Shown: positions 7,107-62,000, counted from the first letter of the stretch. The stretch: 64,000 nucleotides of DNA from Candidatus Omnitrophus sp. (GCA_020719005.1 DYQZ01000001.1:5779-69778); one strand, 5' to 3'. A program made the numbers and translations. Notes: generated by a model not told the origin, from the letters alone.

Positions 7107-8027
7107 ATGGAACAAAAAGTCTTTTTACGTCGTGGTTTTACATTGATCGAACTGGCGATCGTGTTGTGTGTGAGCGCGATGCTCGCCGGGGCGCTGGTGC
7201 CGTCATTCGTTAAGAGTGCGCATATTGAGGCGGCACGTAAGACAGCGGCTGAAATGACGCTCCTTAAAGAAGCGGCACAACATTATTTCTTGAAGAATGC
7301 CGCATGGCCCGAGGATCTTGAAGCGCTGCGCGCATCGGGGGATATTGACGAGCGTTGGCCTGGAAGAAATCCTTTTGGAGATCTTTATGTTGTAACGCCG
7401 GACGTGGGGGGCCTTGTTCTATCAACAAAAGTTCCGTCGGCAATGGGGGATGTGGTGACGGGGGCTCTTGCGATGTCGGTCCAACAAGACGGAGAGGTGT
7501 CTTTACGCGTGACGTCTTCTCTCGATGGAGCGGGTGTGCCGGTGGGCGCGCTTTTGACTTGGCCTTCGGAGGATATTCCCGAGGGATGGGTTTTGTGTGA
7601 CGGCCGGGCGTTAGAACGCGCGGCATATTCGGCACTGTTTGCGCTGCTCGGCGTAAGTTATGGCGTTGGAGACGGAGTCACAACATTCAATGTGCCCGAC
7701 CTGCGCGGGCGTATTCCCGTCGGCTTGGATAATATGGGTGGCAGTGCGGCAAATGTGGTAAGCGGTCCATTGGCACGGACCCTCGGTGGAAAATATGGAG
7801 AAGAATCCCATGCGCTTACAGTGACAGAGATGCCGTCCCATAATCATTATGGATTCGGTGAAAATATTCCCCGCTGGCCGTATGGGACCTCCGGGCCGAA
7901 TAATAATCAAGGCCCTCCTCACGCTGATTATGACAATTATTTGCTCGGCACAACATTCTCCGGCGGAAACGCGTCGCACAATAATCTTCAACCTTCGATC
8001 GCCTTGTATTGGATGATCAAGACATGA
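7107..8027 (+). CDS. Prepilin-type pilin fused to a C-terminal phage tail-collar (Collar/MdpB-like) domain
   Basis: The N-terminus MEQKVFLRRGFTLIELAIVLCVSAMLAGALV is a G|FTLIEL class III signal peptide. The C-terminal half reads LTWPSEDIPEGWVLCDGRALERAAYSALFALLGVSYGVGDGVTTFNVPDLRGRIPVG...GEESHALTVTEMPSHNH. This matches the phage tail collar domain consensus (GW..CDG..L....Y..LF..LG..YG.GDG.TTF.LPDLRGR ... H.LT..E.P.H.H). A purine-rich SD-like stretch (AAAGAAAGAG) precedes the ATG. Confidence 0.7.
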   Translation: MEQKVFLRRGFTLIELAIVLCVSAMLAGALVPSFVKSAHIEAARKTAAEMTLLKEAAQHYFLKNAAWPEDLEALRASGDIDERWPGRNPFGDLYVVTPDVGGLVLSTKVPSAMGDVVTGALAMSVQQDGEVSLRVTSSLDGAGVPVGALLTWPSEDIPEGWVLCDGRALERAAYSALFALLGVSYGVGDGVTTFNVPDLRGRIPVGLDNMGGSAANVVSGPLARTLGGKYGEESHALTVTEMPSHNHYGFGENIPRWPYGTSGPNNNQGPPHADYDNYLLGTTFSGGNASHNNLQPSIALYWMIKT

Positions 8028-8908: not shown

Positions 8909-9258
8909 TATCGACGGTAATAGCGTGTCACTTTGCATCATTAGCATGGTCGGGTGTATATGAATTAAGCCGTGTGGATTATTTTAATATATACGAAATT
9001 CGACGAGAGAAAAACGACACGGCTTCGCGGCAGGCATTCTCATCCGATGATCTGTGGGCGGTGGAAATGACCGATAGCGCCGGCCGTTCGTTTTTACAGC
9101 GTCCGCCGGAAGTTGTGATGGAACTGTTGAACGATCCCAATACTTTGAATGGATCGAAATATCTCGCATGGAACGAGGCGCGCATCAAACATTTGGAGCA
9201 GGCGGCGGCGTTGTTGGACGAAATATCAAAAGATCCGTCGAGGAGAACACAAAGGTGA
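8869..9258 (+). CDS. Hypothetical small secreted protein
   Basis: 129 aa with an N-terminal signal-like helix MDILAKKRVLSFLISTVIACHFASLAWSG. It overlaps the previous gene by 40 nt. No known motifs recognised. Confidence 0.4.
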   Translation: MDILAKKRVLSFLISTVIACHFASLAWSGVYELSRVDYFNIYEIRREKNDTASRQAFSSDDLWAVEMTDSAGRSFLQRPPEVVMELLNDPNTLNGSKYLAWNEARIKHLEQAAALLDEISKDPSRRTQR

Positions 9259-9262
9259 TGTG

Positions 9263-10480
9263 ATGACGTGGAAAGCAAAAGCATTGTTCATCGGCGCGGT
9301 GTTGTGGATCATCACCACAGGGGATGCGCCCGCTGATATTTTTGAGCGATACAGCGATCCGTCAATGTTGCGACAAGAGGCGTTGCGACTGGATCGCACA
9401 GGTTATGACGCCACACTCGTCGGCGGCTATATCGGCATTCCTGCGGGTGATGTCCTTTCGCCTTCATCCCGCCGGAACTGGTCGGCGAAAAGCGTTTCTG
9501 ATATTGATCCAGAGGAGGTCTTTGACAAAGATCTCCGGCGAATGATCGAACGCGACCGCAAAAGCACGGTGTCGTATTCGTCGGTGTTGTCTAACAACGC
9601 TCTTTTGTTGATGTCTTATGCCAGTCCCGCCATGGCGGATATTTTAAAACATTACAGAGCATCTTTGTTTGCCCGTATGAACATTGAATACGAGCGTTCA
9701 GCACAAAAAGACAATCCTTCGTCGGCGACGCTCGAGCTTTTCTATCGCGCCTCGCTTGATGCGTGCCTTTATCAGGAAAGGACGCGTGGATTTCTCGGCG
9801 GGCTTGAGGTGTGCAGGAAAGAGCCGCCGCTCGGGCACATCAAAGATCCGACCGGGCAATTTGTCACAACACACAGGCCGTGGGCGATCGTGATGGATGC
9901 GCTGACCCGCGTGGGTTTGAACAATCGCGCGGCGCGTCTGGCTGTTGCCATTGCGGGTGATGTGGTCATTGATCCGCAAGGCATCAACGAAACGGCCCAT
10001 ACACGTACATTTTTTACAGAGACCGAAGCCCGCGCTAAAGAGCAGATGACCGATTGGATCAAAATGCTAAGAAATTTTTCCGAAACAAAGCGCGTCAGTG
10101 ATGTTGAACTCGACATGTTAAGTTGGCCTGGTTTTTCTATAACACGAAATGCGCTGAACGATCTTTTGACCCTCAACGAAACAAAACGGGCTTTGTTCAT
10201 TTCCAGGATGGCGCAGTTGTCCGCGAGCGAGGATGTCAAAAACGACCTTCAGGGAGCGTTAAGGGCTTTAGACAGGGGGATGGCTCGTTCTGGAGCGGAT
10301 GATGTCTTTAAGAGCATCCTAAAGGCAAAGAAAGCGGTATTGATAGGGGTATTGGCAGACAAGAAAGACAAGGATGCTGGTTTTAGGGCATCGGAAGAAC
10401 TTTTTGAGGTTTTGTTAGTGGATGCGGATATTGCCAGAAAGCAAATTCTAACAAGCATGGGTGGCGTTAAAACCGAATGA
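9263..10480 (+). CDS. Hypothetical secreted protein
   Basis: Start chosen at ATG 9263 (AAGGTGA at 9251-9257). The ORF-track start 9149 overlaps the previous gene. The N-terminus MTWKAKALFIGAVLWIITTGDAPA is signal-peptide-like. The ~405-aa mostly helical body has no recognised motifs. This is the last gene before the intergenic region. Confidence 0.5.
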   Translation: MTWKAKALFIGAVLWIITTGDAPADIFERYSDPSMLRQEALRLDRTGYDATLVGGYIGIPAGDVLSPSSRRNWSAKSVSDIDPEEVFDKDLRRMIERDRKSTVSYSSVLSNNALLLMSYASPAMADILKHYRASLFARMNIEYERSAQKDNPSSATLELFYRASLDACLYQERTRGFLGGLEVCRKEPPLGHIKDPTGQFVTTHRPWAIVMDALTRVGLNNRAARLAVAIAGDVVIDPQGINETAHTRTFFTETEARAKEQMTDWIKMLRNFSETKRVSDVELDMLSWPGFSITRNALNDLLTLNETKRALFISRMAQLSASEDVKNDLQGALRALDRGMARSGADDVFKSILKAKKAVLIGVLADKKDKDAGFRASEELFEVLLVDADIARKQILTSMGGVKTE

Positions 10481-11068: not shown

Positions 11069-14000
11069 ATGGACGAAAACCGCAAAGACCTCAACAAGAA
11101 CGACATTAGTCCCCTTTTTGGGGATGAGTCTTTGCGCGCGGTGTCTGAAACAAGTAATATTCCAGCAAAAACCCCCTCCACAACGCCCCTGACCCCGAAA
11201 AATGGGCATGCGGCTTTGGTCAATGAATTCAAAAATATGGTTCCCGACGGTGTTACGTCGAAGGATTCAGCTGAGACCTCAGTGCCTCCGGCAGGCGTTT
11301 TTGATGATGTGGACCCCGCTCTCGTAGGTGTGGGCATGGGTTCAGATGGTTTTGTGTTGGGTGCTGAGGATGCTATTGTCACACCCGAAGGTCCGTATTC
11401 CAGCCGTTTTAGCACGTGGATGCGCGTTGTTGCTTTTGCGATCGTTGCTATTTTTCTACCAGATCAGATCAGCTGGGCGTTTAATTATAATCCTGCCGTT
11501 CTTTACGGGAATCAGGTTTCAACGGTCATGGCCCCCATGCCCGGGATGGATCTTCTAACACCAAAACAACTTTCTTCCATGCAGGTTTCGGCCAGCGTTA
11601 CCGACCTCTTAAAACAAGTTTCTGAAAAGAGCGCGGATAAAGTAAGCATCAAACTTGATGATAATCAAGGACTTATGGGCCTGAATGGAAAAGAGCCCGC
11701 TATCCTTGAGATCAACAACGAAGCCAAAATGACCGCGCCCCAGATCGAACAGGTGCGTGCGTGGTTGAGCGATCCGAAGATCAATGCCCTCAATTGCGGT
11801 GTGTTCGCGCTGAAAGAAATATTGTCTGGTAATGGTATAGATAAAACCGTTACAGAACTTGCTGTTACGACGATCAGCACCGATTTGATGGCTAATATCA
11901 TCAAGCCTGGCGATAAAAAACTTAAAGTTACGCTTTATTCCATGACCGAAGTTGCTAAAGCCCTTGGTCTGAACGTCAAGGCCTTAAAAGTGGCACCGGC
12001 TGAAATGCTCGCCCTTCCCAAGCCGTTCGTGGCGCATCTTTCCGACGAGCACTTTATTACAGTTTTAAAGACAGATGGCAATGATGTTGTAGTGAGCGAT
12101 ATGGGCGAAACGCTCCATATGGCGCGCGACGATCTGGCCGCGAAAGCCAGTGGTTTTGTCCTTTCCCGCGTTGATGCCAACATCCTTCCTTCCTATAAAG
12201 AGGTTTCTTCATCCGCCCAGGCTTTCGTGTGGGGCGACCGTTGGAAGCGTCAAAAGCTTCCGGGGCTTGAATCTGCAGGGTCACAGCTGAGAAAATATGC
12301 GATCGACATGACGATCAAACTCGTCACGGCGATCATCGCTTTCTTTTGTGGTCCGGCGGGTTGGATCTCCTGGATCGTTGCTCAGATCGCCGATGCGCTT
12401 ACTAGGATATGTGTTGTGGCGGGTGCTTGTACGGCAAAACAGGCGTTTATCATTAATACAGCAATAGCTGTGGCGACGATCATCTGTACGCTTGGGGCAA
12501 GTTCTTTAAATACAGCAGGACAACAAACCGCAGCACAAGCTGGCGCACAAGCTTTCAAGGGGGCTCTTACAACCGCGTTAGGAACTGTTGTAGGGACTGT
12601 TGTATATGCGGCAATCGGCCTTGCTATTGGTGTAGGCGCGGCGCATTTATTATGGAAAGTCAATCAAAAGATAGACGCAAAATATGGTTCTAGTTCACCG
12701 ATCGCAATGACGTTGAAGGCGGTTGCGTCCGCGGTTGTGACGGGTGCATGTACAACCGGTCTGTTTAGCTGGGGGAACGCTATTAAAGATGGTCTGAAGA
12801 GCATGGCCAGCGGAGTGGGTACAGAAGCGGCAAAACAAGGCGCACAACAAACGGCTGCGGATTTTGCTGTAGCGATGTTTGTTAAGCTTCCGAAGTCGGT
12901 ATTAGATGGTATTGGTATAACCTCAAGTAGTGATGCCTTTAGGAGATTTTTATATACACAAGGCGGTTCTTTGGCTGTACGCATGGCATTTAAAAATAGC
13001 AAGGATACGGCATTGGTTGATGCGTTGGCCACTCTTGGTGGAGCGGCAGCTGGACTGGCGGGGTCTTATATTGAACATGGAGCTACGACTGGAGACTGGG
13101 CGGGTGTTCCAACGTCTCTTGGAGAAGAAATAGAGCCCGTTGATCCTACAACTGTTAATACGATGGCGGAAGCCACTACATCCGACGCGCCCAGGTCAGC
13201 TGTAGGTCAGTGGATCGACACAAAGATCCATAATACGGGTTGGACAGGGGCGATCGTTAGAACGATGGGCAGAGCAACTCTCGAGGCGAGCGTTTCATTT
13301 ACTATGGGCAGGATGGAAAAGAGCGTTGTTGGCGAAGATGATGGTTCGGCCGCTTATCAACAAAAACTTTTGGGGTATCGTTCGTTGAGTTTTGGTATTG
13401 CTGGAATGATCACAGGGGTTTATATAGGAGTACGTTCGGCGTTGGATTCCAATGGAACCGGCATGGTATCTTCTTTCTTTAAGGGTTTTGGGGGTGGCAT
13501 GGTAACTGGCGCTATGGATAGTCTTACCAAAGCGTATGGTAAGCAGGATTTTGATACGATCATGAGTAATGCTCCTAAGCAGGGCGGGATAGGCGGGGAT
13601 GTCGAATATAACATGGCTTTGGTAAATGCGGCTCAAGGCATGTCTAATAATACAGGTATGACCTATGAATATTTCAGCAGTTGGGATGCGCAATGGAAGA
13701 CGATGAAAGAAGAGAACGCCAAGTCTGACAATCCGGTGAGTCAAAAAGAATTGCGCAAGGAATATCAAAAAGCTTTTGGTCGAGATATTCAAAGCACCCC
13801 CGGCATCACAGGGATGAACGGTATTTTAAAGACAGCTAATATTGATATGCGTGTCAAAGCTGTTGAGAGCGGTGTGAGTTGGGCTATGACCCGCGGGCTT
13901 ACTTCAGGCTCTCTTGAGCATCAGCAAGCCAAACGTGCGGTGGTCAAGCTTGGATTGACCTATCGTGGAAAAGAATTATTTGCTGGATCTGATCGACAGT

Positions 14001-29000: not shown

Positions 29001-32000
29001 TCCTTACAGGAGATGTGTTCAGATTAGCTCAGAATGAGAAGATCCGCGGATGGGTTGTGGATGAATATGTAGTCATTCAGGGAAATGAAGTAGGATCATT
29101 GGAAGAAAGTCAGGCTAAGGCGCTTGAGACGGAAGTGAAAGAAATTTCAGGGTTGACTGTTGGAGATGCGAGCAGGGCTCTTCAGGGCAAGACCAAGGAA
29201 GATATATATAATCTTCGCTATCTCATGTTAATGAATAACGATGAGATCGATCGCTTAATGAATGCAGCACCGGCTCTGTTCCAGGACGAAGTCGGTTCCT
29301 GTGTCCGCACCTCCGCTTCTTCTCAGCAGAAACTTGAGAAGGTTTGGATCGATTATGCTCAGGGTAAATATAAGGAACCTGCCGCGTTCTGGGCATGGGT
29401 CTTCAAGACAGCGAATGGTGCTGAGCTTGATGAAGAGGTTAAGACGATCTTGAAGAAGATCGCGCTTGATGCTCCGATCGCGATCGCGGCTATTGCTCTC
29501 GTGCCTGACTTTAAGGATGCCATGAACGCTGCGGCTCGTGCTGAAGGTATCAAGGCGATCCTCGAGCTCAAGTTCGGCAAGAAGATCCCGAACGATGTTC
29601 TGATCGCCTTCCAGGGCATGACCGGAAATGTTGATACCTCGATCGTTGCTAATGGCGGCACGGGCAGCCTGAAGCCAGCGAAGATGAATGCTTCTTTGAC
29701 CACGGCTGTTAATCGTTATAACAAGGGTGTCTGGAGCAAGACTCAGATGGATGAGTTCCTTGCGGCGTGGACTGGTCGTGGTTATGTGGCTGAATATTAT
29801 GTGAGTGAAAAGACCCAGAAGCAGAGCGTGCGCGTGATGACGGTTGTTCCGCAGTATGCCAAAGGCTATAAGCCGAAGGGCAGAACGGCTGATGTTGAAG
29901 AAGAAAATCCTGCGCTCGCTAAATACAAGAAAAATTTGACCCGTATGCAGGATCGTCTTGCCAGGGGTGAGATCACCAAGGTGCAATTCAATAATTGGAT
30001 GGCGCTCCAGGGCAAGCTCACGGGTCAGGATGAAGTGAATGCCGCTGATATGGCGCGTGAAGCCAAGAATTATCCGTGGAACACGCCGGGTTATGACGCG
30101 CTTCAGAAGGCCGCGGTTACCAAGACCGAGGTTGTGGCAAGCGCGCCGGCTGTCGCGGCTCCTGCTAAAGCAAAGCCTGCGAAGTTTGAAGATACTGGTT
30201 TGACGATGACGGATGATGGTTATCAGAAGCCGGTGACAGAAGTTCCGGCACCGGTAATCGTGCCGGCTGTTATGCCTGCGCCGGTATCGAGTGCGATCCC
30301 TCACTTCGTTCGGGATGACGGCAAGATAGACGCTTCGATGTCTACCGAGCAATATAAGGCGTATCAGGAACTTTGGAACAAGCATGGTCACTGGCAAGCG
30401 GGTTCGCTTGATGAAAAGATCTTTGCGCGTAGCATTTTGGCATTTATTAATAAGTATGAGCTTTCTGCTGATCTGAAAGATGATGTTGGAAGATTGAACA
30501 GGGTGTTGGCTGGCGATGCGCTTATGTCGAGATATCCTGCTGGTCTTTTGATGAGCATTAAGACCGCGGCAAAGAATCACCCATCCCGTCCGGCGGCTGT
30601 TGCTCCCGCTGTTGCTAGAAAGACAACACCTCAACAAGAAGCTGAATCCTATGAGGCCTACCTTGTTGTGAAGGGCAGAACATTGTCTGCGAATGTTATT
30701 GCGGGGATCAGGGGTTTGATCAAGTCGTTGAATAGCATGCCCGGTGAAGCCCTTAAAGCCATGGCGCCAAAAGAAAAATGGGCGCATGTTGAAGCGATCG
30801 GTCAAGAGGCTGGTGTTCCGGCGAATGAATTCAAGCCTGCGGTCCAGACTGCCAGGGATTGGGTTCAGACGCACATGCCATATTCGACCCTGTCTCTTGA
30901 GACCAAGAGTAAGAAAGACGAAGCGCAGATCACTCCTGAACAGCCTCAGACATTGGATGAGATCATCGCAGGCGCGATGATCAAGGTTGATGCCATTGCC
31001 AAGAATGTTCCGGCATGGGATAAGAATAAGGAAGAGATCAAGGCTGCTGTCACCAAGGTCTTTACAACCACTATTAGTGAAGCCAAGAAGCCGTTCACGC
31101 CTAATGTGTATCAGATCACGCACACTATTTTAAGAGTGTTGAATAATATGGATACATCTTCCACGCGTACGCCGTGGGCGATCGTTGAGAAACTTGGTTC
31201 TGGTAAAACACTCGCAGAGGTGTTGGCTGTTGAAGCGACCTTCTCGTTGTGGGAGGCTCAGAACAGAGAAGCCGGAGATTATGAAGTGTGGGTCTTGCGT
31301 GATGCGCTGGTCGACGGCATCAAAGCCGATGATCCTTTTGCCTGGTCCGCCCTTGAACGCATTGCCGGGGTTTCGAATGTTACGCGTTTGATGGCTGATC
31401 CTAACGATCATCGCAAGACCATGGACGTTCCGCTTATCCCGACCACAGCCGCGAATCCGAAATACACACTGCGTTATGCGGTCAAAGACGCCATTTTAAA
31501 TCGCGCGAATGAATTTAAGTATCATGACGGTATTCTGCCGAACATTGTTCTGGCCGTGATGGATGAAAAGCAGGGCTTTGATGAGACGGGTGAACAGATC
31601 GTTTCAAGCGGCATGCCGTATTTTGAAGCTCAAGAAAAGGGCGGCAATGCACTTCAAGAGGGTTTGGCGCATGCCCGTTTTGTGCGCGACGTTATTGGGG
31701 AAGTTGATGCGCTCGAAGCAAAATATAAAGAAGGCGTTTGGGATAATCCCGTCGTTGCCTTAGGTGATGAGAAGAAAACACAGGGCATTGGCGTGAAAGA
31801 CCGTTTCAGCGCGGTGCTTAAAGCTGAATATAGACCAGAGGTCGAGGAGTTGTTTGCGAAACTTCAAGCCGATAAGAAATTACCACGCGATGTAAAGGAT
31901 ATTGAGACCTTCCTGCTTTATGTGAACGCTGTCGGTGAATATCAGCGCATGGCTGAACTTAAGAATTATGATACTGTGCCGCTTGCCATGCTTAAGCCGC

Positions 32001-47000: not shown

Positions 47001-50000
47001 ATGCAAGCATTGATACGGCTGTAAGTGATATGAAGGTTGTGTTTAAGGCCGCTGTTGGTCTTGAGATCGCCAAGCGTATTCATGCGCGTGAAGGCAAGGA
47101 AGCCAAGGTGGTGTTTGATGAGTCTGATGCGAAGCAGAAAAAAGGCGAGCCGGTAACAAAGTTTTATATTCCAACTCCGCAGAAAGAATTTAATAACCGC
47201 ATTAATGAAGCGGCCCTTCAGGTGAGCCGTCGTCATGAATATCAAAAAGCTCTGGTTAATACGTGGGCCAGCAGTGAAGCTGAATATAAAGCAATGATCG
47301 ATCAGTTGACCGAAGGGTTTGCGCTGACGATCTTCAGGAACATTGCTGATGCTGTAGGTATTGTGTATCAAGAGACAACGACAGCAAAAGAACTGGCTGA
47401 TCAGTTGGGTAATATTGATCTTTCTCAATATGATACGATCGCGAAGTTTGCGATCTTTAGCGGTCCACCCGGCGGCGGTAAAGGTGCTGTGTGGGATCGT
47501 TTTGAAGAGTTGTATGGGAAGATGACAACAAAGTTCGTTTTTTTTCATACACGTAATATCCGCAAGGGCGAGGTGATGGGAAAGAATTATCATTATCGCA
47601 ATCCTGATGCATTAAAGAAGCTGGAAAGTGAAGGCAAGATCATCACCGCTTCTATTAATGGTCAAGCGCAGGGATTGGCGGTAACGAGTTTTGAAGATGA
47701 TTATTCCTATGTTGATCCGCAGTCGAATGAAAAACATGAGGGAAGGGCAAGTGTTGCTTGTTTGGATCAGGTATTTAAGGGCAATAAGATCGTTATCCTT
47801 GAATGTGGTTTAGCCTGGTTCGAGGCGCTCCACAAGAAATATGGAGATGAGCTAACAAGTATTTTCATATCACCCTTCAGTGATCAGGAATTGGCGTGGA
47901 CAGAGATGTCGGTTGAAGATCGCAGGAAGTATGAAGCTTATGATCATAGAATTCTTGAGCGTGCGGCAGCGTTAAATAATAGAAGCGCTGCAATATTAGA
48001 TAGAATTGCGCACCACAAGAAATTTTCACACGATGGTAACGCGTTGCCTTTCTTTGGAACGACGGTGGTTTCTTTTGTTTCAAAGAATTCGGAAGCTTTC
48101 TTACGTTTGGTCGCTTTTCGTGATCGTCTTAAACAGGCTTTAGAGCGGGCTGGTTTGTCTAAATTTATGGCTTGGACGGAAATTGATTCTTTGCATATGA
48201 CGGTATGTGATATTGATAAAGAGCTTTCTGCTGAAGGGTTTGATGAGCATGTGATAAGGCGTAAAGAAGAAGCGCGCGAAGTGTTCAGTAAGATAAAGAA
48301 TATCACACCTGTTTCTGCGCAGATGAAGGGGCTTGGTTATAAGCTGGCCTTAACGGCACATGTTTTATTTAATGACCCCAAAGAGTTGGATAAGATATTT
48401 GAGGTCGAGGATTCTATAAAAAAGGGCACGAGTGAGCCTAAACAACAACGTGATTTCACAGGTCATATTACATTGGGTTATCCTGTTGGTGTGATGACGA
48501 TGGATGAACTGAATAAATTATTTGATATCTTCAAGCAGTTCTCGAACGATGATCTTAGAGATATTGTGTTTGATAATGTCACCTTTACACGATTCAGTAA
48601 TATGAATACATATGGAAGAGAGTTGTCCCTTGACCTTAATTCTGGTGAGATCCTTTCTTATGGTAAAGATCATGAAGTGTTGCTTGATATTTTTAATGGA
48701 GATCACGGCAAGCTTATTCATGCTCTCGGAGTTTGGAAAAAAGAGTTTAAAGATGTTTTAGGTGTCGAGAAGTCTTTTGAACAGTTGACGACTTTTAAAG
48801 ATGATGATCATCCACAAGGAACAGAATATTTACGTATCATTGATGGGCAAGATCAATATACCGGTGAAGTTCGTCCCAGAGATCTTTGTCATGCGCAGGG
48901 CACAGAGCATCGTGCCGTTGCGGTTATTCTTTATGATCGTGAGGGGCGTATTCTGGTGCAGGTGCGCTCGAGAAAGAAGAAGTTCTTTCCTGGCATGAGA
49001 GATGTGTCTGCGGCGGGTCATCTTGCTTTGGAGAAAGAATATTTGGATGGGGCCATTAATGAAACAGAGGAAGATGTCTTTGATAGCCGACATAAGCTTG
49101 ATCCTGATCGTTTTCAATACGTGGGAACATTTCCTGCGCATCATCGAAATGAGAAGATGGGCTTAAACGATAAAGAGATGGTTGTTTTGTATATGTATCA
49201 GGTGAGGGATGAAGAGAAGGCTCGCGTTGCAATTCAGGCATCTGAAGTAGAGGCTGTCGAATGGGTTTCTTTTGAGAAAGAGCTTTCGGATTGGCAGATG
49301 TGGTATACAGCGGTTGGTAATGGACATGAGCAAGGGAAGTTTGCCAATATTCAAGGGATGGCGGTTGGGTATGCCATTCTTGGAATTGATATTCTTGCCA
49401 ATGAACGTATCGTTGAAAAGATGGTGGATGTTGTAAAAAGGGGTCTTTCTATTAATTCCATGGCGTTTGCTGGAGAAAATAAGTTGGTGTCAACGGATAA
49501 ACAGGGTGCTGTTGAGACGCGGGCAGGTCCTGAAGAGATAAAAACACCTGCCAAGACTGCGGCTGAGTCAAGCCGTACGGCGCCACCCGTGGAGAAGGAA
49601 TTGCCTATTGTTCCTGCCTCATGCGTTAATTATTCCGCACGTTATGTTGATCTGCAAAAGATGTTTGAGACGCTTCGTGAATTGTTATCCTTCAAGAGTC
49701 CGACCGGCCAGGAAGGCCAGGTGCGTTCTTATATTGAAGCCTGGTTCCAGGCACAGCATATTCCGGTTACGGTTTTATATAAAGGGGACGCTCCCAAGAA
49801 CCTTGTCGTTGAGCTTGCGGCGACGTCGGGTCAGGAAAGCGTTGGGGTCATTGCGTTCGATGCGCATATGGATATTTCCGATAATAATGCTGCCGACCTG
49901 GTGTTGGATCGGAATGCTCAGAGAGTGATCGCCACAGGTAGGGATAACGGGGCCAATGGTCTTGATGACAAGATCGGTATTGCGGTGATCCTTGAGATGA

Positions 50001-53000
50001 TGCGGGCACTGCAGGAGAAGAATATTCCGCATGGCCGTATCCGATTGTTCTTTACCGCAGAAGAAGAAACTTTTGAACATCGGGGTGCACTTGATATTAA
50101 GACCCAGCACCCAGATCTTTTAAGAGATATTGCTTTGATGATACCTGTCGACGGGCATCGTTTGCAGAAGAATGGCCGATATGAAGATATTTTAAGCGGG
50201 GATGCTGGTTCTTTGGCGGTCATGTTCATTAATCTTGTAGATGGGGCTTTGGAGCGGTTGGTCGTGCTTGACGCCGGGCGCGCGCTTGGTATTGAGCCGG
50301 CAGTCTTTAAACTTAAGGCGAATGCCAGCGGTAATGAAACTATTTGGGGAGCGGCTGGAATGGCTGTGGCACATGTTCGTGCTAATTATGCGACGACAAA
50401 TGACAGGGCTAGTGTTGATCATGCGGATTATGCGGATATTTTGAGTTTAGGTGATTGGCTGGTTGAGATCGCTCGTCGAGGAGTAGAAATGTCAGAAGCC
50501 CAGTTTCTTAACGTCCCCGTCGTTACCCTCAAAGAAGAAACCCGCGTTGCGTTAGATGAGATGCGTGCGGATCATTTGAATAAGACCAAGAACACAACGC
50601 CTGCCCGGTATCGTGCGCTTTCTTCCATTGTTACGACGAGCATTGCCCGTGAACTTAGGAAGCACGCAGATCCTGCCAAGACCGTGATCGTTTTCCCGTG
50701 GCGTTCGGCCATGGCCATGAGCGAAGCGTTTGAGCGTGAAGGGTATCGTTACTTTTGGCACATCGGTGTCAAGCGCGATGAGAAGACGCTTGAGCCGTCG
50801 ATGTATTATAAGGGCAACTGGCGTATGCCGGAGGGTGTTGATGTGGCGGACCTTGAGGTTGTGATCGCGGACCCGATGTTTGCCATCGGCGGAAGTGTTG
50901 CCCTCACGATCGATATCTTGATGAAAGAAGAAGGCATCAAGCCTTCGCAGATCACGGGCGTGCATGTCGTCTCTGTCCCGGAAGGTATCAAGAACATCAC
51001 CGCGAAATATGCGATCAAGCGGATCATCACCGGGTCGCTGGATGAGAAGTTAAATGAGATCGGTTATATCGTTCCTGGCCTCGGTGATTATGGCGACCGT
51101 TATTTTGAAGGCATCAGCTGTGAAGAGGTCCGTCATTGGAGGAATCTGGACATTCTTGACGGGAATGATCTGAAGGCGCTTGAAGGGAAGATATTTGGGG
51201 CTGAGGCAGGGGACGATGTTGTGAAGGCATATAACGGCATTCTCACCCCTGATGAGATCGCGGCTCTTGCGGCGTATAAATCTAATACTGTAAAAGTAGA
51301 ACAGAAGGTGCTCGCCCCGGCGCTGGCCATGATCGACGGTCTGGTTTTTGAATTACCAGAGGCGCGGTGCCTGGATCTTGGTGTGCTCACGCGCAATCTT
51401 GAGGTTTGTTTAATTTCAATGCAGGGAAGGGCTCCTCCGAGTGCCACTATTGAGGACGGCATTCTTTATCTATTTTCATATGAGGATAATAAAATAACGC
51501 CAACGCTTCTGGCGCGCATGATGGTTCATGAAGTTGTTGAGGATCAAGCCCATCGCAGTATTTCAGGAATTTCTAACGAGAGCGCCCATTCTTTGGCCAT
51601 CGATGCCGAGAGATCCTTTTCCGATCTTTTTAATTCCCACGAGGTCTTTGTTGCGGATTATGACGGGACATTGCATAACTTTCAGCAAGGGGTCCCGGGG
51701 AAGGTGCGTCAGGCGCTCATCCATAATGTGCTGAGTTCTGGCCGTCGGCTGGTTATCGCGACTGGGCAGGCCCCGGACACGTTTTATACAAATATTTTTC
51801 CTCAGCTTGATCTTGCCGGGGCTATGCGTTATGACGGTCAGGTCTATATTCTAGGTGAGGTCGGCGGTTGTGCTCGGCTTTTACGTTCTGATAGAACGCT
51901 TGTTGATGATCCGGATCTTTCTTATGCGCCGATGAGTGAGGATTTTCGCTCCGAGGTCGCTCGTCAACTTGCGGGTATTCGCGCTGATCCGGCGATCGGT
52001 CTTTCTGATTGGGAGGTGGGGGTTGTTCAGCGCCATTCCATGATCTCGTTGCAGATACATTCTGAAGCGGCACACCGTAAAGCGCAGATGATCACGGAGC
52101 GTCTGCAGGCGGCTCTTGCAAGCTCGGGTTTTTATGTGACTAATGTGGTGGGTTGGTTCATCGATATTTCTTCAGCCAGCAAGGGCATTGGTGTTAAGCG
52201 ATACCTTACGAAATTCGGGCTTTCCCTTGAGGATACGCTCGTGGCTGGCGATAGCGGTAATGATATTTCCATGCTTGCCTTGGCAAAGGAAGGGGCCCAG
52301 GCGGTTTTTGTCGGATACGACGGGGCGATCTTGCCGTTGGATATCCGTGATAAGCTTGCGTATGTTCCGACGCCTGAAGCATTGGCTGATGTTATTTCTT
52401 CCAGATTTGTTCAAAAAGAGAGTGCCCCCGCTTTGTCGTTGTCTGGTTTTTGTGGCAACTGTACCGAGGCGATCAAGAAGGCATTGCCAGGGCTGGTCAT
52501 GGCCGGTAAGGTTGAGGTTCGGCGCTGTGCAGCGCTCGGCCTGCTTGATCTTGATGGGGACAAGGTTGATTTTCTTGAATTTGATTACAATGAGATCCCT
52601 GAAGCCATCCGTTTCAATGAACTCAGCAATATGCAGGAAGTTGCGATCTTTGCGGCTGAATATTCCAAGCCAGGGCATTTTTCGATCCATGTTTCTTCTG
52701 AAGCCCGCCGTCGATTTGATGCGCTTTTTCCCGTGGAAGATCCTGAGGCACGTAAGACCGCTCTTAAAGTGATCGCGCTTCATGAAAAAGTTGAGCTCGA
52801 CGGGATGAGCCATGCCAATGCCGTAGAATTCCAGAAGACGGTTGAGGGCTATAAGGTAGTTGCCGAACGCCTGGAGCGTTTGCAGTCGCTGGAGCGTGTG
52901 ATCATCCCGCTTGCGCATAACAGTGTTGATGTCTCTAATATCAAAGCCAGGATCGTGTTCGCGGAACGTCACAGTTTGACAGAAGAACAGCGTCAGATCC

Positions 53001-56000
53001 TTTTTGGTCTGCGTAATCTTGAGCTTATTGCCGCTGCGGTCCGTAAGATCGACAGTCATGTCAAGCGCGGGCGTTTTTCCTGGTTTTTTTCGGCAAAGCC
53101 TGTGTGTGCGGCTGAGGTGATCGAGGCTGTTGTGGAACGCCTCATCGCCGAGCGTTCCCGTTTGTCTGCTACCGTAGGGATCCTTGAATTGTTCGATGCG
53201 GTCATTACGGATGAGGAAAAGGCTATTCTTCAGGAGTGGGGCATTAATCCCGCCGGAGAAGTTGTCAAGGTTCCTCAAGGGCAGGGCACGATTTATGATC
53301 TCATCAATAAACATTTGGATGATAATGACCTGCTCTCGTATGCACCGATGATCGGTGATATGTCCGATATGATCGAGAAGAAGAAAGAACGTTTTAAAGG
53401 TGTTCCAGGACGCGCCGGCGCTTTTTATAGGGTTTTGACACCATTCTTGCGCAATATGGCCAAGCATGACCCAAGCCGTGTCGATCAGTACAAAATGTTG
53501 AGCGAGGGATTTTTGGAGAAGGTTATTAGTGAAGATGCCTTGCCGATGGTCAAGTGGTGTGAGGCGGGTGTCTTGGATGTCATTGCCACGTTCCGTACCA
53601 AGATCCAGACGGGAGAGGCGCGGATCGCTGATATGCGCACCAAGCTTTTGGAGCCTGATGCGGACCGTATACAATTGGAAAGAAGTATTTTGATGGTCCA
53701 GCAGAATACCGTCGGTCTTTTCATGGAACTTACGCAGATCTATGAGGATATCCTTTGGGAACTTGTTCTGGATTATCCCTATCAATTGGATTCTACACGC
53801 CGGATGTTGCGCGAGAATATCGTTCTGGCGCAAGTTTCCAGGATGGCGGATACACTTGCCGCTTTAAGCGCGCGCCAGGTTGAGGCGGATGAAGAGCCGC
53901 TGATCGCTCTTGAAGTAGAGCAGGCCCGTATTTTTACGTGCATTGCCATAGAGGCTATTGAACAGTTGAAAAAAGACGGCAGTCAGGATCTAAGCTACCG
54001 CAGAATGTTGGAACAGTCGGTGGATGCGGCGATGGAAGAGTTCAGGGCGCGTCTTCTGACACGTTTTGTTCCTTTGTATCGCGCACAAGATGCAGGGATG
54101 ACCATTGAACAGGCTGAAGAGAAAGTGTTGCGCGAGGCCCGTAATTATTACGATCATTTGACTGATTATATCATCGAAGAATCTGAAAAAGGGCTGGGGA
54201 CCACGGACCCTCACGGACTTCAGGCGGCACTTTTATATCATGATGTTCCTACTCCCATCAAATTCATGCGGACTGTAAGCGGTGCGCTTAAGGGGCGTCT
54301 TAAAGTGGTGCTGAATACACGCGGCTCGACGAACAATCATTATGCGCTGGCGGCCAAGGCTAACAAGATCCCTGTTCTGATCCTGGACCCTTCACGCCCC
54401 GATGACTTGAAAGATCTTCGGCGGTATCAGGAAGTGTTGATCCAGGACCACAGGGTTTATATTAATCCAAGCGCAAAGACACGCGATCGGGCAGATGGTG
54501 AGGAGCGTCGTCGTGCGGTTTATCAGGAATATTGCCGGTTTTGGGCAGCGCGTTCTTCGGTCGGCGCTGCGGCTAACGCGGATGATGCACAAGCGATCAC
54601 GGATGCTTTCAAGGAATTCATGGCGCGCAATATCGGCCTGGTGCGCAGTGAGAATTTGTTCCATGGTATTTTACCGGTCTCGATCACTGAGGCGATGATC
54701 GCGGAAGGAATACCGCAAGGCACGAAGATCTTTGATATCGGGGCGATGATCGAGACGCCGGGTGCCGTGGTAGATCTGGATAATATTCTTTCGCTGGCCG
54801 CATTCGTTAGTATTGGTTCGAATGATCTTACGGCAAAGACCTACCGTATCGATCGTGCGAGCGTTGAGCAGGGGGCGCGTGTTTATGGGCGTGTGATGCC
54901 TTTGGTGTTAAGGAAGATCCGGACGGTCATTGAAAAAGCGAATGCCGCTGGCGTTGACGTTTCGATCTGCGGCGACCTTGCGGCCATGAGGCGTTTTTGG
55001 ATCGTGTGGGCGTATTTGCGTCATCAAGGCGTGCGTGTGCATTTAAGCATGCCGGCGCACGAGATCCCCGAGTTCAAGGCGAGGATCAAGGCGTTGGAAA
55101 TATACCAGGGTTCTCATGCTGTCGTTGGGGCATGGGATATGATCGATAAGATATTTGCTCTTCCCGAGGATGAAGTTGCCGCGGATGACGAAGCGTTAGC
55201 CGTTCTTTTGGATAAAAAGCTTTTGCGGCTCGATCAGATCATCAGGAAGCGTCTTCGGATCGGGTCACTTCAGGATACAAAAGGTCCTTGCACCGCGGCC
55301 GATAGTCATAATGGAAAACTTTATTCCTCATTTCTTCCTTTGATCGTCCTGACGATAACGCTTCAGGCCGGTATTATGTGGCTTGCTGTTGGTTTAGGTG
55401 CATTTGTGTTCTGGAAGGTCTATAAGAATTTTCTGCGTTCCCGGGCCGGGCTTGGACAGCCTGCGGCTCTTCGGCCTTGGCTTATGGGCATGCTCAAGGT
55501 GGCGGCGCGTTTATCGGAAAGGATCTTTTGGCCTTATAGTTCAGCTTTCAAGCGGGCAACTTCTTTTGATCTTTGGACAGTTGCAGGAACGATCAGGCGC
55601 AAAGAGGTGCGAACACTGTTGTTCCAGGTCGCGGGCATGATACGCCGTGATCGTGAAGTTTATCTGGCTTCAAAAGCTGCGGCTGTTCATTTGCCGTCTT
55701 GTTTTGGCGTTTATTTGGCACGTATTTTTGCAGGTGTTATCCCTATTGCGGTTTATCGTAAGGTTGATTCTTCCAGTCCCTCTAATGGTGCTGATATAAC
55801 CTGGCTTAGCAAAAAAGGGTTATTGGATAAGAATGGTTTTATGGAGGAGTTTGTTGATCCGCGCGGAAAGTTATCCTGGGGTATGGCCGGCTTTTATGCG
55901 GATATCATCGAGATCTATTTGTTGAATACGCATGATCATACCCGGATGGTGGCAGAGATGGTGCGTTCTTATCTGGATCATCAAAAGTCTGTTTCTCATA

Positions 56001-59000
56001 AAGAATTCTGGCAGTTGATCGGCCGCTCCTCGTCACAGCAGATGGCACAATACCGCCAGGATGTTGAAGCCATGATCCACAACAGTCGCTTGAATAAGGT
56101 TGGGCCTGTTGCTTTTCACCAGAAGATAAAGCAGTTTCTTCTTATCCGCTTTGAAACAAAGGGTTTTGTCATTGAGAATGAGCTTATCGGATGGCTCTAC
56201 CGGACGTCGCAGGATAAAGGCTTCGAGTCTTTGGCTGATGAACTGGTGCGTTTGCTCGACGTTGCGCGCAATGTGGGTTATGCGATGGAACATCATGTTC
56301 GCGCGGGGTTGAAAATGTCAGGATTGAACGAATTGATGCCGCGTCATATTGTGTTTGCTTATGAGCCTCGTCAGGGAAAGGGTGCGGCTGTTTTAAACAG
56401 CACCTACAGGCTTAATTATTTCAGGTATTCCCTTCACGGGTTGGAGCAGGCAGAGCTTTTGGAAATGCTTTTGTATGATATTTATTTTCATATCATTTAC
56501 GCGGATCAGATGTTGGTCGGATCCTGTGCTTATCAGGCGTCCCGCCCTGGTGCCAGTAACATGCTCGAGGATGAACATTTTTGCACGGCGGCGTATCCGG
56601 TGGAAACTCTTGAGGGAGTGGATCTGGTCCGTCTTCAGGACCGTTTGGCCAAAGTGATGGCTGAACATATAGCGGCCCGGCTGGCGTTTGGCAAGGATGT
56701 TCAGATCGCGGGTGCACGTAGCAGGATATTCATGACGATCAGTAAGCTCAAGAACGGCGCTTTGCTTAAGGATCTGGCACTTGAAATGGCATCTCGTTAC
56801 GCTGTGGTGCAGACGGAAGGATATAACACTATTTTGGCGTCGGAGATCGCACAACTTAACGTATTTCTGACAACAAAGGCTGTGTATAGTGATGACGCCT
56901 TGGATGTTGAGGCTTATATTGCATTGCATGTGCAGAAGATGGCGGAATTCTTTCAGAAGGTGGAGTTCAAGAAAGATGTTCGTGTGAAGCTCGTGCATAA
57001 AAAGTTCTTTCTGGCCAGAGGCGGGCATGATGAGCGGTCGCTGGGAGAAATGAACATGGAAGGCCAGATCACGATCCCGGTGAAGTATTTCATGACCACG
57101 CGCGGCTATAAAGAGGTTCTGGCCCGTACTGCGGCCATGCTCAGCATGTATCGTTTCCGTCATAAAGTGAATGATCAGCAGACCGTTATTCATGATATGG
57201 CCAGGCAGATGATGCTGTCTTCCGATATCAGGGAACTTTTAACATTGATGTTCACGCTTAATGGCAGCCGCATGCCAGAGGCTCGTGCTCAGGCTCTTTT
57301 GGATGGATTTGATGAGGTAGAGGCGCGGGGGGCTTATGATATTGTGACGTTGGAGGATGAGCTGTCCCGTCATCTTAACGAGCTTGGGTATCAATATATT
57401 GCGATAGGTAAGGATGAAAAAGGTTTCCGGATGTCTTTTCTTTCTCCAGCGGCTATCGGAAAGATGATCCAGCAAGCGTGGGAAGCGTCCCGGAAAAATC
57501 CTCATGCGGAAGTTTTTCCTTCCACGGGTTTTGCCATTCGTCCTACTGTTGGCGGGCGGGCGATATTCCGAACATTCGATCCCGTATCTCCCGAGAACTT
57601 TGTGCACTATCATTTGCGCGGATTTATTCAGGCTGGAGAAGGCGCGGATCAGCATACGATCGTGATGCAGGGGTATGAACCGCGCAATCCCGATCTTTTC
57701 ATGAAATATCACGGATGGTTCGGGATCTACACGACGTCGGATCTGATGGGATTTCTGCGCAATGATATGATCCTGACAGCCCGTCGCTTTATGCTGTGCG
57801 GTGTGTTTTCCGGGCACACCAGGGTTGTGATCCAATATATTGATCAGCACGGCAACAAACAGCAGGAGATCGTCAGCCTCGTCACGCTCGCGCGCGAGGT
57901 TATTTACCGCCGGCATGATGTGCCCAGGCGCAATCATCCTGATTATGTGCCACAGTCGCACATCCTCGCTACCGGCGAAACACTTTCCTGGTATAACTAT
58001 TTTCTGATGAAGAAAAGATTGGGGCGGCGTCTTTCAAAGAAGGAACAAAGGTATGTTCAGCTTTTTGAACGCATGACCCCTGATGATAAAAGGGATTCTT
58101 TGCTCACGAAGATCTGCCATGATTTTCAGGTCATTGACGAAAAGACCTTGCTGGCTATACCGGTCATGGGGAGAAAAGATCTTCGGCTAGGGGATATTAA
58201 TATCCGTTGGAGAGTTATTTTCCGCCAGTTCATTAAGAAATGGGCACACCGTCATGTTTTTGTTTTATTTACGGTTGAACGCCCTTCTTCTTTGTTAAGC
58301 AGTATACAGGCATTCTCCGGCCTGCCAGGATCAGATGCAACAATGCCCGAACTGCCTCCGTCGATCCGGCCTCGTGATGAAAAAGAACATTCCAGATTTA
58401 ACGAGTCTTTCAAGTCTTTGGCACGCATCCTTTCTCCTACAAAGGTCATGTGGATCATGCCCATGTATAACGAGACATGCCGTCTTTTACCAAGAACAAA
58501 GACCAATCATCCTGGTGAAGATGCTTTGCGTGTTAAGGTGCAGGAGATGTTGGTGGCGCAGAAGATCAATCCTTTATTACAACAGCGCCTCTTGGCCGTT
58601 GATGACGGCACACCGGAATTGACATCGGCAGCGACGGTAAAAGATCTTTGGGAGAAGATCCGCGAGGAATATTGCAAGGAAGGTATAGAGCTTGACCCTG
58701 ACATGGTCCAGGTCATCGATGTTTCCCCCGAAGAAAAGAAAGAGATGGGAAGTAAGAAAGGCTGGGCAGTCCTTAAAGCCATGGCTTTTGCCGCGAAGGA
58801 CGGCTGGGCGGATATGATCGGTTTTACGGATACGGATATTTCAACGAATTTGATCCAGGCTCCGCTTCTTGTCGAGAAGCTCCAGCAGGGCGCGGGCGCC
58901 GCGATCGGGTCGCGTTGGATGCGCGGGGGAGAAGTTCGGGATATTTCGATCAAGCGGATGCTTTCGAGCAAAGGCTTCCTTTATTTGGTCACCTTGATCC

Positions 59001-62000
59001 TGCTTCCGCTCTTTGGCATTCATGATACGCAGCGCGGCTTTAAATTGTGGCGCAAAGAGATGATCCCGCTTTTTATCAAGTATGCCACCGAACACGGACT
59101 TGCGTTTGATACGGAACTCTTGTTACTTACACGGATGACGGGGAAGAAGATCATAGAAGTGCCGATCGCTTGGTTTGATTCTGCGGAAGCTAGCACGGTC
59201 GCGCTCGGCGTGGAATGGAAGGTCATGTTGCTTGCGGTCATCAAACAGGCGCGTCATTGGCTTAATCCTTTGATGTGGATGAAAGTTCGCTCTGCGATGA
59301 AGGACTCGGCGCGGTCGGTGCCGGATGAGAAGAAGGCATCAGCTTGGGCAGTGGGTCTTGAGATATTGCGTGTGGTCGGGATCTTCGGCTGGAAAATAAA
59401 GAGATTGAGGGTTGAGCACAATGTTACGCTCGCCGTGAATTTCCTGCGGTCGATCGGAGAAGAGGCGCGTGCGAAGGTGATCGAAGAAATGGCGCGTACC
59501 GGGCGTGTGCGGGCAGGTCCGTTCAAAGGGTTTTTGGCAACAACGTATCGCTGTTTGAATGGTAGTGAATATATCCTTCTTTCTGATCTTCCTTTATATG
59601 CCAAGCGTGGCTGGTTAAGTGCATGTGAAATGAATGCGAGTGTTGTGCACGAGAGCGGTGCGCTTTCAGCGTTCAGGCTTTCCCATGAAGATAATGTTAT
59701 TTTTGAGTCATGGTTCCGTCGGGCTTTTAATGTTGCCGCGTTGAAGCCTGTTGAGATCATAGATAATTTTACCGAGACACTGATCGAGCATCAGAGCGCT
59801 TTTGGGACAGGCGTTGTTGATCTGCGTCAGGTGCCGGAGAAAGTGGATGTTATTGTTGTCGGCGATCTGCATGGCCGCATTGATACGCTCGAGTCTATTT
59901 TAGGTCATCGGATCAAACGCGTGGTTGCTTTTCAGAAAGAATTGGAAGAGTCTGTTCTTGAGAGGGTCAGCTATGGACAGGCAGTTCTGCTCTTTTTAGG
60001 GGACGCGGTCCATGCAAGCCCACAGCGTGAGCAGGTGAGCAGGGCCGTTGAACAGGCCGCTTTTCAAAAAGGCAGAACGCTTACGGCATCTGAAAAAGAA
60101 GCCATCATCGCACCGTATTTCATCAATGCCGAAGCTTCTTTCAAGACGATGCAAAGGATCATGACACTTAAGATCATGTATCCGCGGCATGTGTATTATC
60201 TCTTGGGGAATCACGATCTCCTGGATTATCCCTGGGAAAAATTCACCGATGGTGTTGAAATTGATCAGACGAAGAATTATGTAGAGTATTTGCGAAGCGT
60301 TATCGGGGACGCGGGGGTTGAGAAATATAAAGAAGCCATGCGTTTGAGCCCGGTCCTTTTCTTGGGCAGGAATATCGTGGCGGCTCATGCCGGTCCAGTG
60401 AAAGGCCCTTGTTCGCTCGATGAGATCGGTCGGATCAATACGGCCTCGCTCGTCGATACCCGCATGCGGGACCTGTTGTTCAGCCGTTATTACAGGTTGT
60501 CATTAGTTGAGAGCAAAGATTACATGTATGACGAGTCTGATGTTGACGGCTTCTTGCGTGCTATTGGTTATGATCCGAAGATGACATCGTTCATTGTTGG
60601 CGATGCCCCGTTCGCAGGGAGCGCGTTCTATCATCAGGTTTTCTTGAATCATTATGTTGTTGCCGCAGCCAAGCGTGAGGCCGGGTATGCACTTTCCCGT
60701 GGGGGGCGTCTGGAGTTTGTGGTAGTTGAAGAATCTTCTTCTTTCAGGGTGTCCTCCTTTTTGCCCGTGTCTGTTGCAGCAGTGGCGGCATTCTCTCCTC
60801 GGGATATTCATGTACATGATCTGGTGGGTTGGGGTGGGATGCTTGTTGGTACCATGCTCGCGCTATTCTTATTGCGTAGAACAGATCGCCGGGAAGCTGC
60901 GAAAGAGGATCTGCCGAGAGATGGTTTTCGTACTGTTGATGAAGCGGCGTGGTATGCCATGGAGAGCATTAGCGGATCAACCCTTCCAGGATCCAAGGAC
61001 AGCGTTGAATGGGCGGGATGGATATACAAGAACGATGAGGGGACATATGCTTATACGTCCGCCCAGAAAGCAGGTAGAACGGGAGGCATTCTTGAGGGCA
61101 AGCCTAAGAACACAATGGCAGTGTATCATTCGCATTGTGCTTCCGGTCTTTACAGCGAATTCTTTTCTGATATGCAGACAGACCCTGTTACAGGAGAGCG
61201 CTTAGGGGATAAAGATAGCGCGCGTGCGCATCGCATTGATTGTTATGTTGTTACTCCGTCGGGAACAAAAAGGAAATACGAACATTTAGGGGAAGATGTT
61301 TTCGTTCTTTCCAATAAAGGCAAGAGCCAAACAAAAGACATGTTCGCCCGTCTGGATGAGTGGGGTATTGCTGATCCATGGATCGGTTTCTTGATGTCAC
61401 CTCAGGTGTGGATGAGGATGTTCGTCCGCCGGTGGTTGATCATACAGCCGGTCACAGGGGATCAGCATGGCGCTGCGACATCCATACCCCGGCAGATGCT
61501 GTTGGACAAGACAATACAATATAACGAGCGTGACCTGGAGATCTCTTGGAAGGCCAGAGAAGCGTTGATAGGGAAGACCGATCTGCATTGGAAAGATCCG
61601 GTCGTCTTAAGCAAGTCTGCCGCGACGGACGCGCTGATCGATCAGCTTGTTGAGAAGATAAGAGGGCATGAATTTGATGAAGGGGTCCCGTTGGCAGAGA
61701 TCGTTAAGACAAAGGGCAGGATCTTGTGTGAGTCGTTTGAATTCGTGCTGAGGGAGATATTAAAGAACGCTTTTGATGCGTATGCCATGACTGATCTGAA
61801 GTCTGAGACCGTGAAGGGGCCGGTGAGGGTGCGGATCTTTAGGCAGGGAGCTGACCTTGTCGTTGAAGTATCAGATAACGGCGTCGGGTTCGTTGAGGGC
61901 GTGGTCAAGGCAAAGATCTCAGGCAAGATCATTTTTGGCGGTAGAGGCATAGGCCTTTTGCGTTCGAGGATCCTTTGCCAGGTGCGCGGCGGGGATGTAA

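Follow-up and report, generated by a model that had tools for sequence, protein, structure and literature searches.

The stretch of DNA analysed here (the window; 64,000 nucleotides of Candidatus Omnitrophus sp., GCA_020719005.1, DYQZ01000001.1:5779-69778) contains a stop-free + strand frame that runs from 11048 to beyond 64000, or 17,651 codons with no interruption. Within this giant frame a HAD-IIB phosphatase domain is followed by an Enzyme-I-like unit with a phosphoenolpyruvate (PEP)-utilizing barrel, and in this copy the barrel is short of roughly a quarter of its structure. With a probability of roughly 0.6, the window copy carries an in-frame deletion that cost it PEP-driven autophosphorylation, and within a mosaic protein of the Archaeovorin kind the HAD domain and the PEP unit stand as modules independent of each other. 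Rather than a unit that still couples energy, the PEP module is probably a remnant, either dead or put to another use. A preliminary description of the window had placed the motifs of both domains inside a very large protein, which the single frame bears out, and had proposed that the two form one phosphotransfer unit, with a catalytically dead scaffold as its fallback. The motifs that it quoted are real, all lying in one + strand frame and far beyond chance, and for the PEP barrel the fallback is the reading favoured by the evidence.

The features that carry this reading are the following (aa, amino acids; EIN, N-terminal domain of Enzyme I; HMM, hidden Markov model; AF2, AlphaFold2):

51641-52294, +, complete Cof-type HAD-IIB phosphatase domain with four catalytic motifs (Pfam, NCBIfam and PDB alignment)

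52445-54200, +, conserved N-terminal extension of the Enzyme-I-like unit, about 550 aa, which starts at GFCGN and ends in an EIN-like helical part

54227-54553, +, phosphohistidine (swivel) domain (Enzyme I alignment, family profile and relatives-only HMM)

54560-54682, +, first two barrel strands, AAANAD ... IGLVRSENLF ... ILPVS (alignment to relatives and to canonical Enzyme I)

54682/54683, +, junction of the in-frame internal deletion, between ILPVS and ITEA (MAFFT, tblastn, HMM, Pfam and AF2)

54683-55156, +, C-terminal half of the barrel, β5-β8 (Pfam, phmmer, HMM, AF2 and Foldseek)

The Enzyme-I-like unit of the window (module 2) spanned 52445-55156 on the + strand; in intact relatives it is approximately 1,100 aa long. 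A BLAST search with 50000-58000 placed the start of homology to the relatives at 52445 (GFCGN), just past the HAD domain, and the alignments were collinear from there to the end of the barrel. A phmmer search with 54200-55200 returned 5,410 relatives, most of them ordinary Enzyme I proteins. The same module was present at 31-52% identity in the top 25 or so, which were long fragments reaching 6,953 aa. All named relatives of both domains came from Candidatus Omnitrophota metagenome-assembled genomes (MAGs), and for two of them NCBI already gives the name 'putative PEP-binding protein'.

The PEP-utilizing barrel reported in the preliminary description was a true homologue of such barrels but was not intact. 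The PEP-utilizers_C family (Pfam) matched with an E-value of 4.4e-25 (88.9 bits against a cutoff of 22.8), and the match covered only positions 171-291 of the 293 in the profile, while positions 3-285 were covered in the relatives P0007, P0008, P0009 and P0011. In the retained first strands, GLVRSENLF was located at 54635-54661, and its Arg, in LVRSE, corresponds to Arg296 of Enzyme I. Residues A125, N126, G146, L147, R149 and E151 were invariant in the family, and AF2 placed strands at residues 124-126 and 144-147. The C-terminal half contained MIETPG (54746-54763), IGSNDLT (54812-54832) and CGDLAA (54968-54985), all on the + strand, and retained the equivalents of Glu431 (in MIETP), Asn454/Asp455 (GSNDL), Arg465 (IDR) and Cys502 (ICGD). 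Alignment of this half to the C-terminal domains of Enzyme I in PDB by phmmer was at the level of residues, with E-values down to 3e-12. A check of the catalytic residues had been proposed beforehand; the equivalents of His189, Arg296 and Cys502 were all present, and the copy had thus not lost all of its catalytic residues.

Several alignments located the missing part directly. A MAFFT alignment of the window copy, two canonical Enzyme I sequences and ten relatives from giant proteins left about 99 aa of P0007 gapped in the window row only, and this single gap fell between ILPVS and ITEAMIAEG. The tblastn alignments of all relatives were interrupted at 54683-54700. An HMM built from the relatives only (416 positions) matched the window at positions 14-165 (2e-40) and 257-413 (1.6e-53), leaving 91 positions (166-256) absent. 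The missing piece corresponded to β3-α3-β4, which holds the family's nearly invariant FRxxDxxxDK motif (the Arg332/Lys340 region of Enzyme I) and the FPM motif. In the AF2 model of 54200-55198, which had a predicted local distance difference test (pLDDT) score of 82, the barrel had six strands versus the eight expected; the pLDDT was 52-70 at the deletion junction and above 90 in the C-terminal half. By Foldseek, the structure closest to the module model was Enzyme I 2hwg (TM-score 0.74).

Neither canonical Enzyme I nor any of the Omnitrophota giant-protein relatives compared, more than 15 in number, shared the deletion with the window copy. Three relatives (P0013, P0024 and P0030) were considered as sharers of the deletion and were rejected, as the alignment showed them to be fragments containing β3-β4. 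Scans of genome and metagenome contigs found no close relative in which the deletion could be checked, and the best protein match had 44% identity. The missing barrel segment was not found elsewhere in the window, either by tblastn with the segments of seven relatives or by a segment HMM in six frames. The best match to the segment HMM was in frame at 29435-29620 (1.8 bits, independent E-value 0.088), overlapped a hydrophobic stretch and was judged to be noise. Permutation or relocation of the segment was rejected, as these searches gave noise only.

In Enzyme I and PPDK, Arg332 (PPDK Arg617) and the neighbouring basic residues bind the phosphate of PEP and are required for catalysis. By analogy with the Enzyme I mechanism, PEP and the active-site His of the intact relatives would yield pyruvate and phosphohistidine at the barrel, and the phosphoryl group would then be transferred from the His to an acceptor docked on the helical domain. 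In the window copy the deletion has taken β3-β4 together with the second phosphate-binding Arg/Lys cluster, so that the barrel could presumably neither close nor bind PEP normally. A frameshift here would cost the protein thousands of downstream residues, which would explain why the module has stayed in frame.

Some observations speak against a simple loss of function. Over the columns that it retains, the window copy had diverged less than any other family member, with the highest mean identity both to the family (33.3%) and to canonical Enzyme I (29.2%). Outside the deletion all 20 family-invariant residues were kept, including the equivalents of His189, Arg296, Glu431, Asn454, Asp455, Arg465 and Cys502. 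A domain that has long been dead is expected to drift. The small amount of drift in the retained part therefore means that the deletion is recent, that it is tolerated with some function, or that it is an artefact of assembly. A stable partial fold may also be conceivable because the AF2 confidence of the C-terminal half was high.

The two conservation results would also fit a trimmed module that is still functional, in which the six-strand barrel and the phosphohistidine domain serve as a phospho-carrier or a regulatory pseudoenzyme; it might, for example, receive phosphate on its His in trans from an intact Enzyme-I-like unit elsewhere, or act as a sensor of PEP or pyruvate. This reading is possible, if rather unlikely. 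The deletion removed exactly two βα units and preserved the β-α-β alternation, and in the AF2 model, besides the well-modelled C-terminal half, the His domain was docked as in phosphorylated Enzyme I (2hwg), all of which are points in its favour. The architecture was, however, found in no other sampled relative, which argues against a conserved design, and the conserved phosphate-binding motif FRxxDxxxDK was gone. Searches of the frame's 17,651 aa found neither a second Enzyme-I-like unit nor an HPr-like domain, and there was no PTS-HPr domain in the upstream genes either. The junction itself was modelled at low confidence.

An artefact of assembly or consensus, or a minor strain variant, would leave the real gene with a full and active Enzyme-I-like barrel. 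The retained sequence bore no sign of relaxed constraint, the deletion occurred in none of the more than 15 relatives compared, and the assembly is most likely of the metagenome type, from an uncultured Omnitrophota-like organism, given that every named relative is a protein from a MAG, three circumstances that are consistent with this explanation. Even so, it is unlikely: the deletion was exactly in frame, its junction lay inside otherwise well-aligned sequence, and inspection of 54560-54800, by eye only, revealed no collapse point or repeat. Loss of PEP-driven autophosphorylation through a genuine in-frame deletion is thus the reading that we retain.

The phosphohistidine domain lay directly before the barrel. 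Its motif TRGSTNNHYA was located at 54317-54346 (+), and the codon of the candidate phospho-acceptor His was 54338-54340. In the alignment to residues 178-243 of E. coli Enzyme I, GSTNNH was placed opposite GGRTSH, which contains His189, and the candidate His was invariant in all of the 12 family members. The family profile matched Enzyme I in PDB with an E-value of 4.7e-10 over E. coli Enzyme I residues 95-302. These alignments uphold the earlier description of the stretch as phosphohistidine-like; the Pfam family PF00391, however, was reached in three of 12 relatives and was not reached by the window copy.

Upstream of the phosphohistidine domain, at 52.4-54.2 kb, the preliminary description had suggested a search for an ATP-grasp or pyruvate-binding partner domain. 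No PPDK_N/ATP-grasp domain (PF01326) was found by Pfam searches in the window or in the 12 family members, and the region was instead occupied by the conserved N-terminal extension. The extension was collinear with those of P0027, P0007, P0008, P0014 and P0010 (BLAST E-values from 1e-97 to 1e-14). The AF2 model of 52412-54700 (pLDDT 80.5) contained an α/β domain, long helices and then the α/β phosphohistidine domain. The first α/β domain covered approximately 52466-52960 and included the motif HEKVELDGMSH at 52781-52813. This motif is part of a conserved HExxExxGxxH...Q....GY pattern, which by its look may be a metal site. No Pfam family, PF05524 included, matched the extension in any of the 12 family members, and the first 545 or so positions of the family profile had no sequence match in PDB. 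As modelled, the last part of the extension resembles the helical HPr-binding subdomain of EIN: Foldseek matched the extension model to full Enzyme I (2l5h, 9.5e-5) and to the N-terminal domain of Enzyme I (2eza, 1.2e-3 over 255 columns).

The PEP module is an extended Enzyme-I-like unit, a paralogue of Enzyme I, and not a dikinase of the PPDK or PEP synthase type, because no ATP-grasp domain was located upstream and the conserved extension found there ends, as modelled, in an EIN-like domain. The preliminary match to PEP synthase, PPDK and Enzyme I therefore holds for Enzyme I and not for the other two. Among the structure matches of the upstream part only Enzyme I and EIN were significant, with PPDK at E-values of 0.4 or worse, and in the NCBIfam ranking Enzyme I models (77.5 bits) stood above PEP synthase models (59.8 bits); the equivalog cutoff of the Enzyme I model TIGR01417 is 341.7. 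The contrary view, that a divergent ATP-grasp domain is hidden in 52.4-54.2 kb, could appeal to PPDK_N as a frequent Archaeovorin domain (West-Roberts et al., 2023, 10.1101/2023.11.21.568195) and to PEP synthase and PPDK among the weaker sequence and structure matches. With the upstream region consisting mostly of long helices, it is extremely improbable.

The HAD-IIB assignment of the preliminary description was borne out by a complete domain with all four motifs. Motif I (DYDGT, 51656-51670) aligned to DIDGT and DVDGT of 2pq0 and 3r4c, motif II (ATGQ, 51758-51769) to ATGR, motif III (the Lys of SASKG) to GTSKA and GGSKA, and motif IV (GDSGND, 52247-52264) to GDGGND. The Pfam families Hydrolase_3 (E-value 2.2e-11, 44.4 bits against a cutoff of 20.9) and S6PP (8.6e-07) matched the segment, as did the NCBIfam models Cof-subfamily (3.6e-14) and HAD-SF-IIB (1.7e-09). 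The NCBIfam bit scores were below the curated cutoffs (53 vs 137 for Cof-subfamily and 38.0 vs 41.8 for HAD-SF-IIB). The domain could be aligned over its full length with PDB 3r4c (13-232 of its 268 residues), where motifs I, III and IV fell opposite their counterparts. Judged from these sequence matches, the HAD-IIB domain is probably an ordinary module, active on a phosphorylated sugar or a similar small metabolite. A comparison for its setting was offered by P0001, an Omnitrophota giant-protein fragment with a HAD domain 35% identical to that of the window; ahead of this domain P0001 has adenosine deaminase and DUF218, while the window has UPRTase.

The HAD domain and the PEP unit are independent modules, and a functional couple is not supported. 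Five relatives extended far enough upstream for the comparison, and a HAD domain stood beside the PEP unit in none of them; the relative that shared the HAD domain (P0001) had other neighbours. The preliminary proposal joined the two domains in one phosphotransfer unit, which would act locally in the envelope to phosphorylate or energise sugars or nucleotides. Both modules did lie within a stretch of about 3,100 aa without strong hydrophobic segments, where guanylate kinase, NUDIX, UPRTase and 2H phosphodiesterase domains were also located, and glycolytic and PPDK-type domains have been noted in such giants (West-Roberts et al., 2023, 10.1101/2023.11.21.568195), both of which lend the proposal some weight. 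Their adjacency was not conserved, however, the barrel was incomplete, and the unrelated α/β domain of the unit (about 150 aa) and approximately 400 aa of helices intervened between HAD and PEP domains. The stretch with guanylate kinase, NUDIX, UPRTase, HAD and PEP domains also suggests a cytoplasmic face rather than an envelope location, because the substrates of such domains are ATP, phosphoribosyl pyrophosphate (PRPP) and PEP. A single HAD-PEP unit is therefore very improbable.

The remaining features of the giant ORF and of the locus upstream of it were as follows:

2378-3982, T2SSE, upstream of the giant ORF

3955-5196, T2SSF, upstream of the giant ORF

5200-6252, YhcG/DUF1016 PDDEXK nuclease gene, placed amid the secretion genes

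7107-8027, pseudopilin-like protein with an N_methyl motif fused to phage tail-collar and Gp10_C domains

11069 (first ATG) to past the 3' end of the window (64000), +, giant ORF, at least 17,644 codons, holding both modules

55340-55396, +, hydrophobic transmembrane-like helix LIVLTITLQAGIMWLAVGL, from a Kyte-Doolittle scan, about 60 aa past the PEP module

about 55697, +, second hydrophobic transmembrane-like helix

The 3' end of the giant ORF lies outside the window, so that its codon count fixes neither the total length nor the class of the protein. Three elements were seen at the N-terminus of the giant protein (11069-12650), namely one transmembrane helix, Peptidase_C39 at aa 294-372 of the giant frame (Pfam) and a cluster of three to four transmembrane helices; this N-terminus agreed with those published for Archaeovorins. 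Further Pfam domains of the ORF were NAGPA, Guanylate_kin, 2H-phosphodiesterase, NUDIX, Peptidase_M28, UPRTase, HAD, PEP-utilizers_C, Metallophos, DUF4329, HATPase_c and Bac_transf. Approximately 20 hydrophobic segments were interspersed among these domains in a hydropathy scan, which is a crude method for topology and does not assign sidedness. A transmembrane-like segment followed the PEP module in eight of the 16 relatives examined, and in seven of these it was located 82-410 aa downstream. In the upstream locus, the ORFs at 251-1432 and 9149-10480 had no Pfam match.

The matches to Guanylate_kin, 2H-phosphodiesterase and Peptidase_M28 (47400-50200) were partial, covering positions 3-71 of 182, 1-60 of 116 and 2-99 of 193, respectively. 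General erosion of domains across the ORF was considered and rejected on the evidence of Guanylate_kin: its PDB alignment ran on, weakly and collinearly, into the second half of the domain, which suggests that divergence rather than truncation explains this partial match. Farther downstream, at 61700-63650, HATPase_c was followed directly by Bac_transf (a phosphoglycosyl transferase), with a strongly hydrophobic helix at about 62171, which is an unusual neighbourhood.

The + strand was the coding strand of every substantial gene in the window, and its GC skew was positive, strong and uniform over all 64 kb (0.08-0.30 per 2 kb). On the - strand, Pfam found no family match for an antisense ORF of 553 aa at 52172-53833. 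The overlapping small ORFs at 54392-54664 (-) and 52143-52772 (+) likewise had no Pfam matches, and an antisense ORF of 622 aa at 29255-31123 (-), opposite the giant frame, had no family matches. These are probably shadow ORFs of the giant frame, perhaps favoured by the strand composition.

Taken for its consequences, the finding is modest: the module was already annotated in Omnitrophota giants, and what is new is the truncated variant. Genuine as the PEP-utilizing motifs are, metabolic or functional models of these giant proteins should not credit this copy with PEP-dependent energy coupling, because a quarter of its barrel is missing. Catalogues of Omnitrophota giants made at the level of Pfam (PPDK-family, 'putative PEP-binding protein') hide the Enzyme-I-like nature of the unit, its large conserved extension and its lack of ATP-grasp. 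They also hide that single copies can be internally deleted and yet remain in frame. The more interesting by-products are the conserved, uncharacterised extension of about 550 aa and the phospho-acceptor of the intact relatives. If the unit of those relatives is active, identifying this acceptor would be a concrete and testable question on the role of the giant proteins. One could go further and see in this extended Enzyme I paralogue a PEP-driven phosphorelay whose targets are substrates derived from prey or the giant protein as such, with the window copy as a six-strand phosphohistidine carrier or sensor that is still under selection and is not a fossil; we regard this view as doubtful.

Among known systems, the HAD domain shared its four motifs and the spacing of its C2B cap with the Cof-type HAD-IIB phosphatases (Hydrolase_3; PDB 3r4c, 2pq0 and BT4131 1ymq). 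It differed from them in its position within a giant protein and in scores below the NCBIfam subfamily cutoffs.

Enzyme I of the phosphotransferase system (PTS; PtsI, TIGR01417, PDB 2hwg and 2kx9, EIN 2eza) provided the best sequence and structure matches to the PEP module. The order of the parts was the same, namely a predicted helical domain, a phosphohistidine swivel domain and a PEP-binding barrel, and the equivalents of His189, Arg296, Glu431, Asn454/Asp455, Arg465 and Cys502 aligned. In contrast to PTS Enzyme I, the window barrel was without β3-β4 and the Arg332/Lys340 region, and the Omnitrophota unit had the conserved N-terminal extension of approximately 550 aa, which is absent from Enzyme I. 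The window unit also had no match to PF05524 or PF00391, fell short of the TIGR01417 cutoff (77.5 bits against 341.7) and was accompanied by no detected HPr. PTS Enzyme I is a soluble dimer of 575 aa, whereas the window module forms part of a protein longer than 17,000 aa.

The Enzyme-I-like units of other Omnitrophota giant proteins, such as MDE2027257.1 (P0008), MBU1726475.1 (P0010) and MFA5345829.1 (P0021), were collinear with the window from GFCGN through the barrel, with identities of 31-51%, and occurred in the same giant-protein context. All of the sampled Omnitrophota units had a full barrel, and the window copy alone was without the segment of about 99 aa.

Archaeovorins have a C39 domain near the N-terminus, a type II secretion/pilus locus upstream and frequent NUDIX and HAD domains, and PPDK-family domains, including PPDK_N, are listed among their frequent domains (West-Roberts et al., 2023, bioRxiv 10.1101/2023.11.21.568195). 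The window ORF exceeded the 7,000 aa that is the minimum length for this kind of protein, contained transmembrane helices with C39 near the N-terminus, and had a type II secretion/pilus-like cluster (T2SSE, T2SSF and the N_methyl pseudopilin) directly upstream; NUDIX, HAD and HATPase_c were further shared features. It differed from the published description in that PPDK_N was absent and the PEP-utilizing part was Enzyme-I-like and truncated. The two modules thus sit in familiar surroundings, a giant membrane protein of the Archaeovorin type as described for Omnitrophota.

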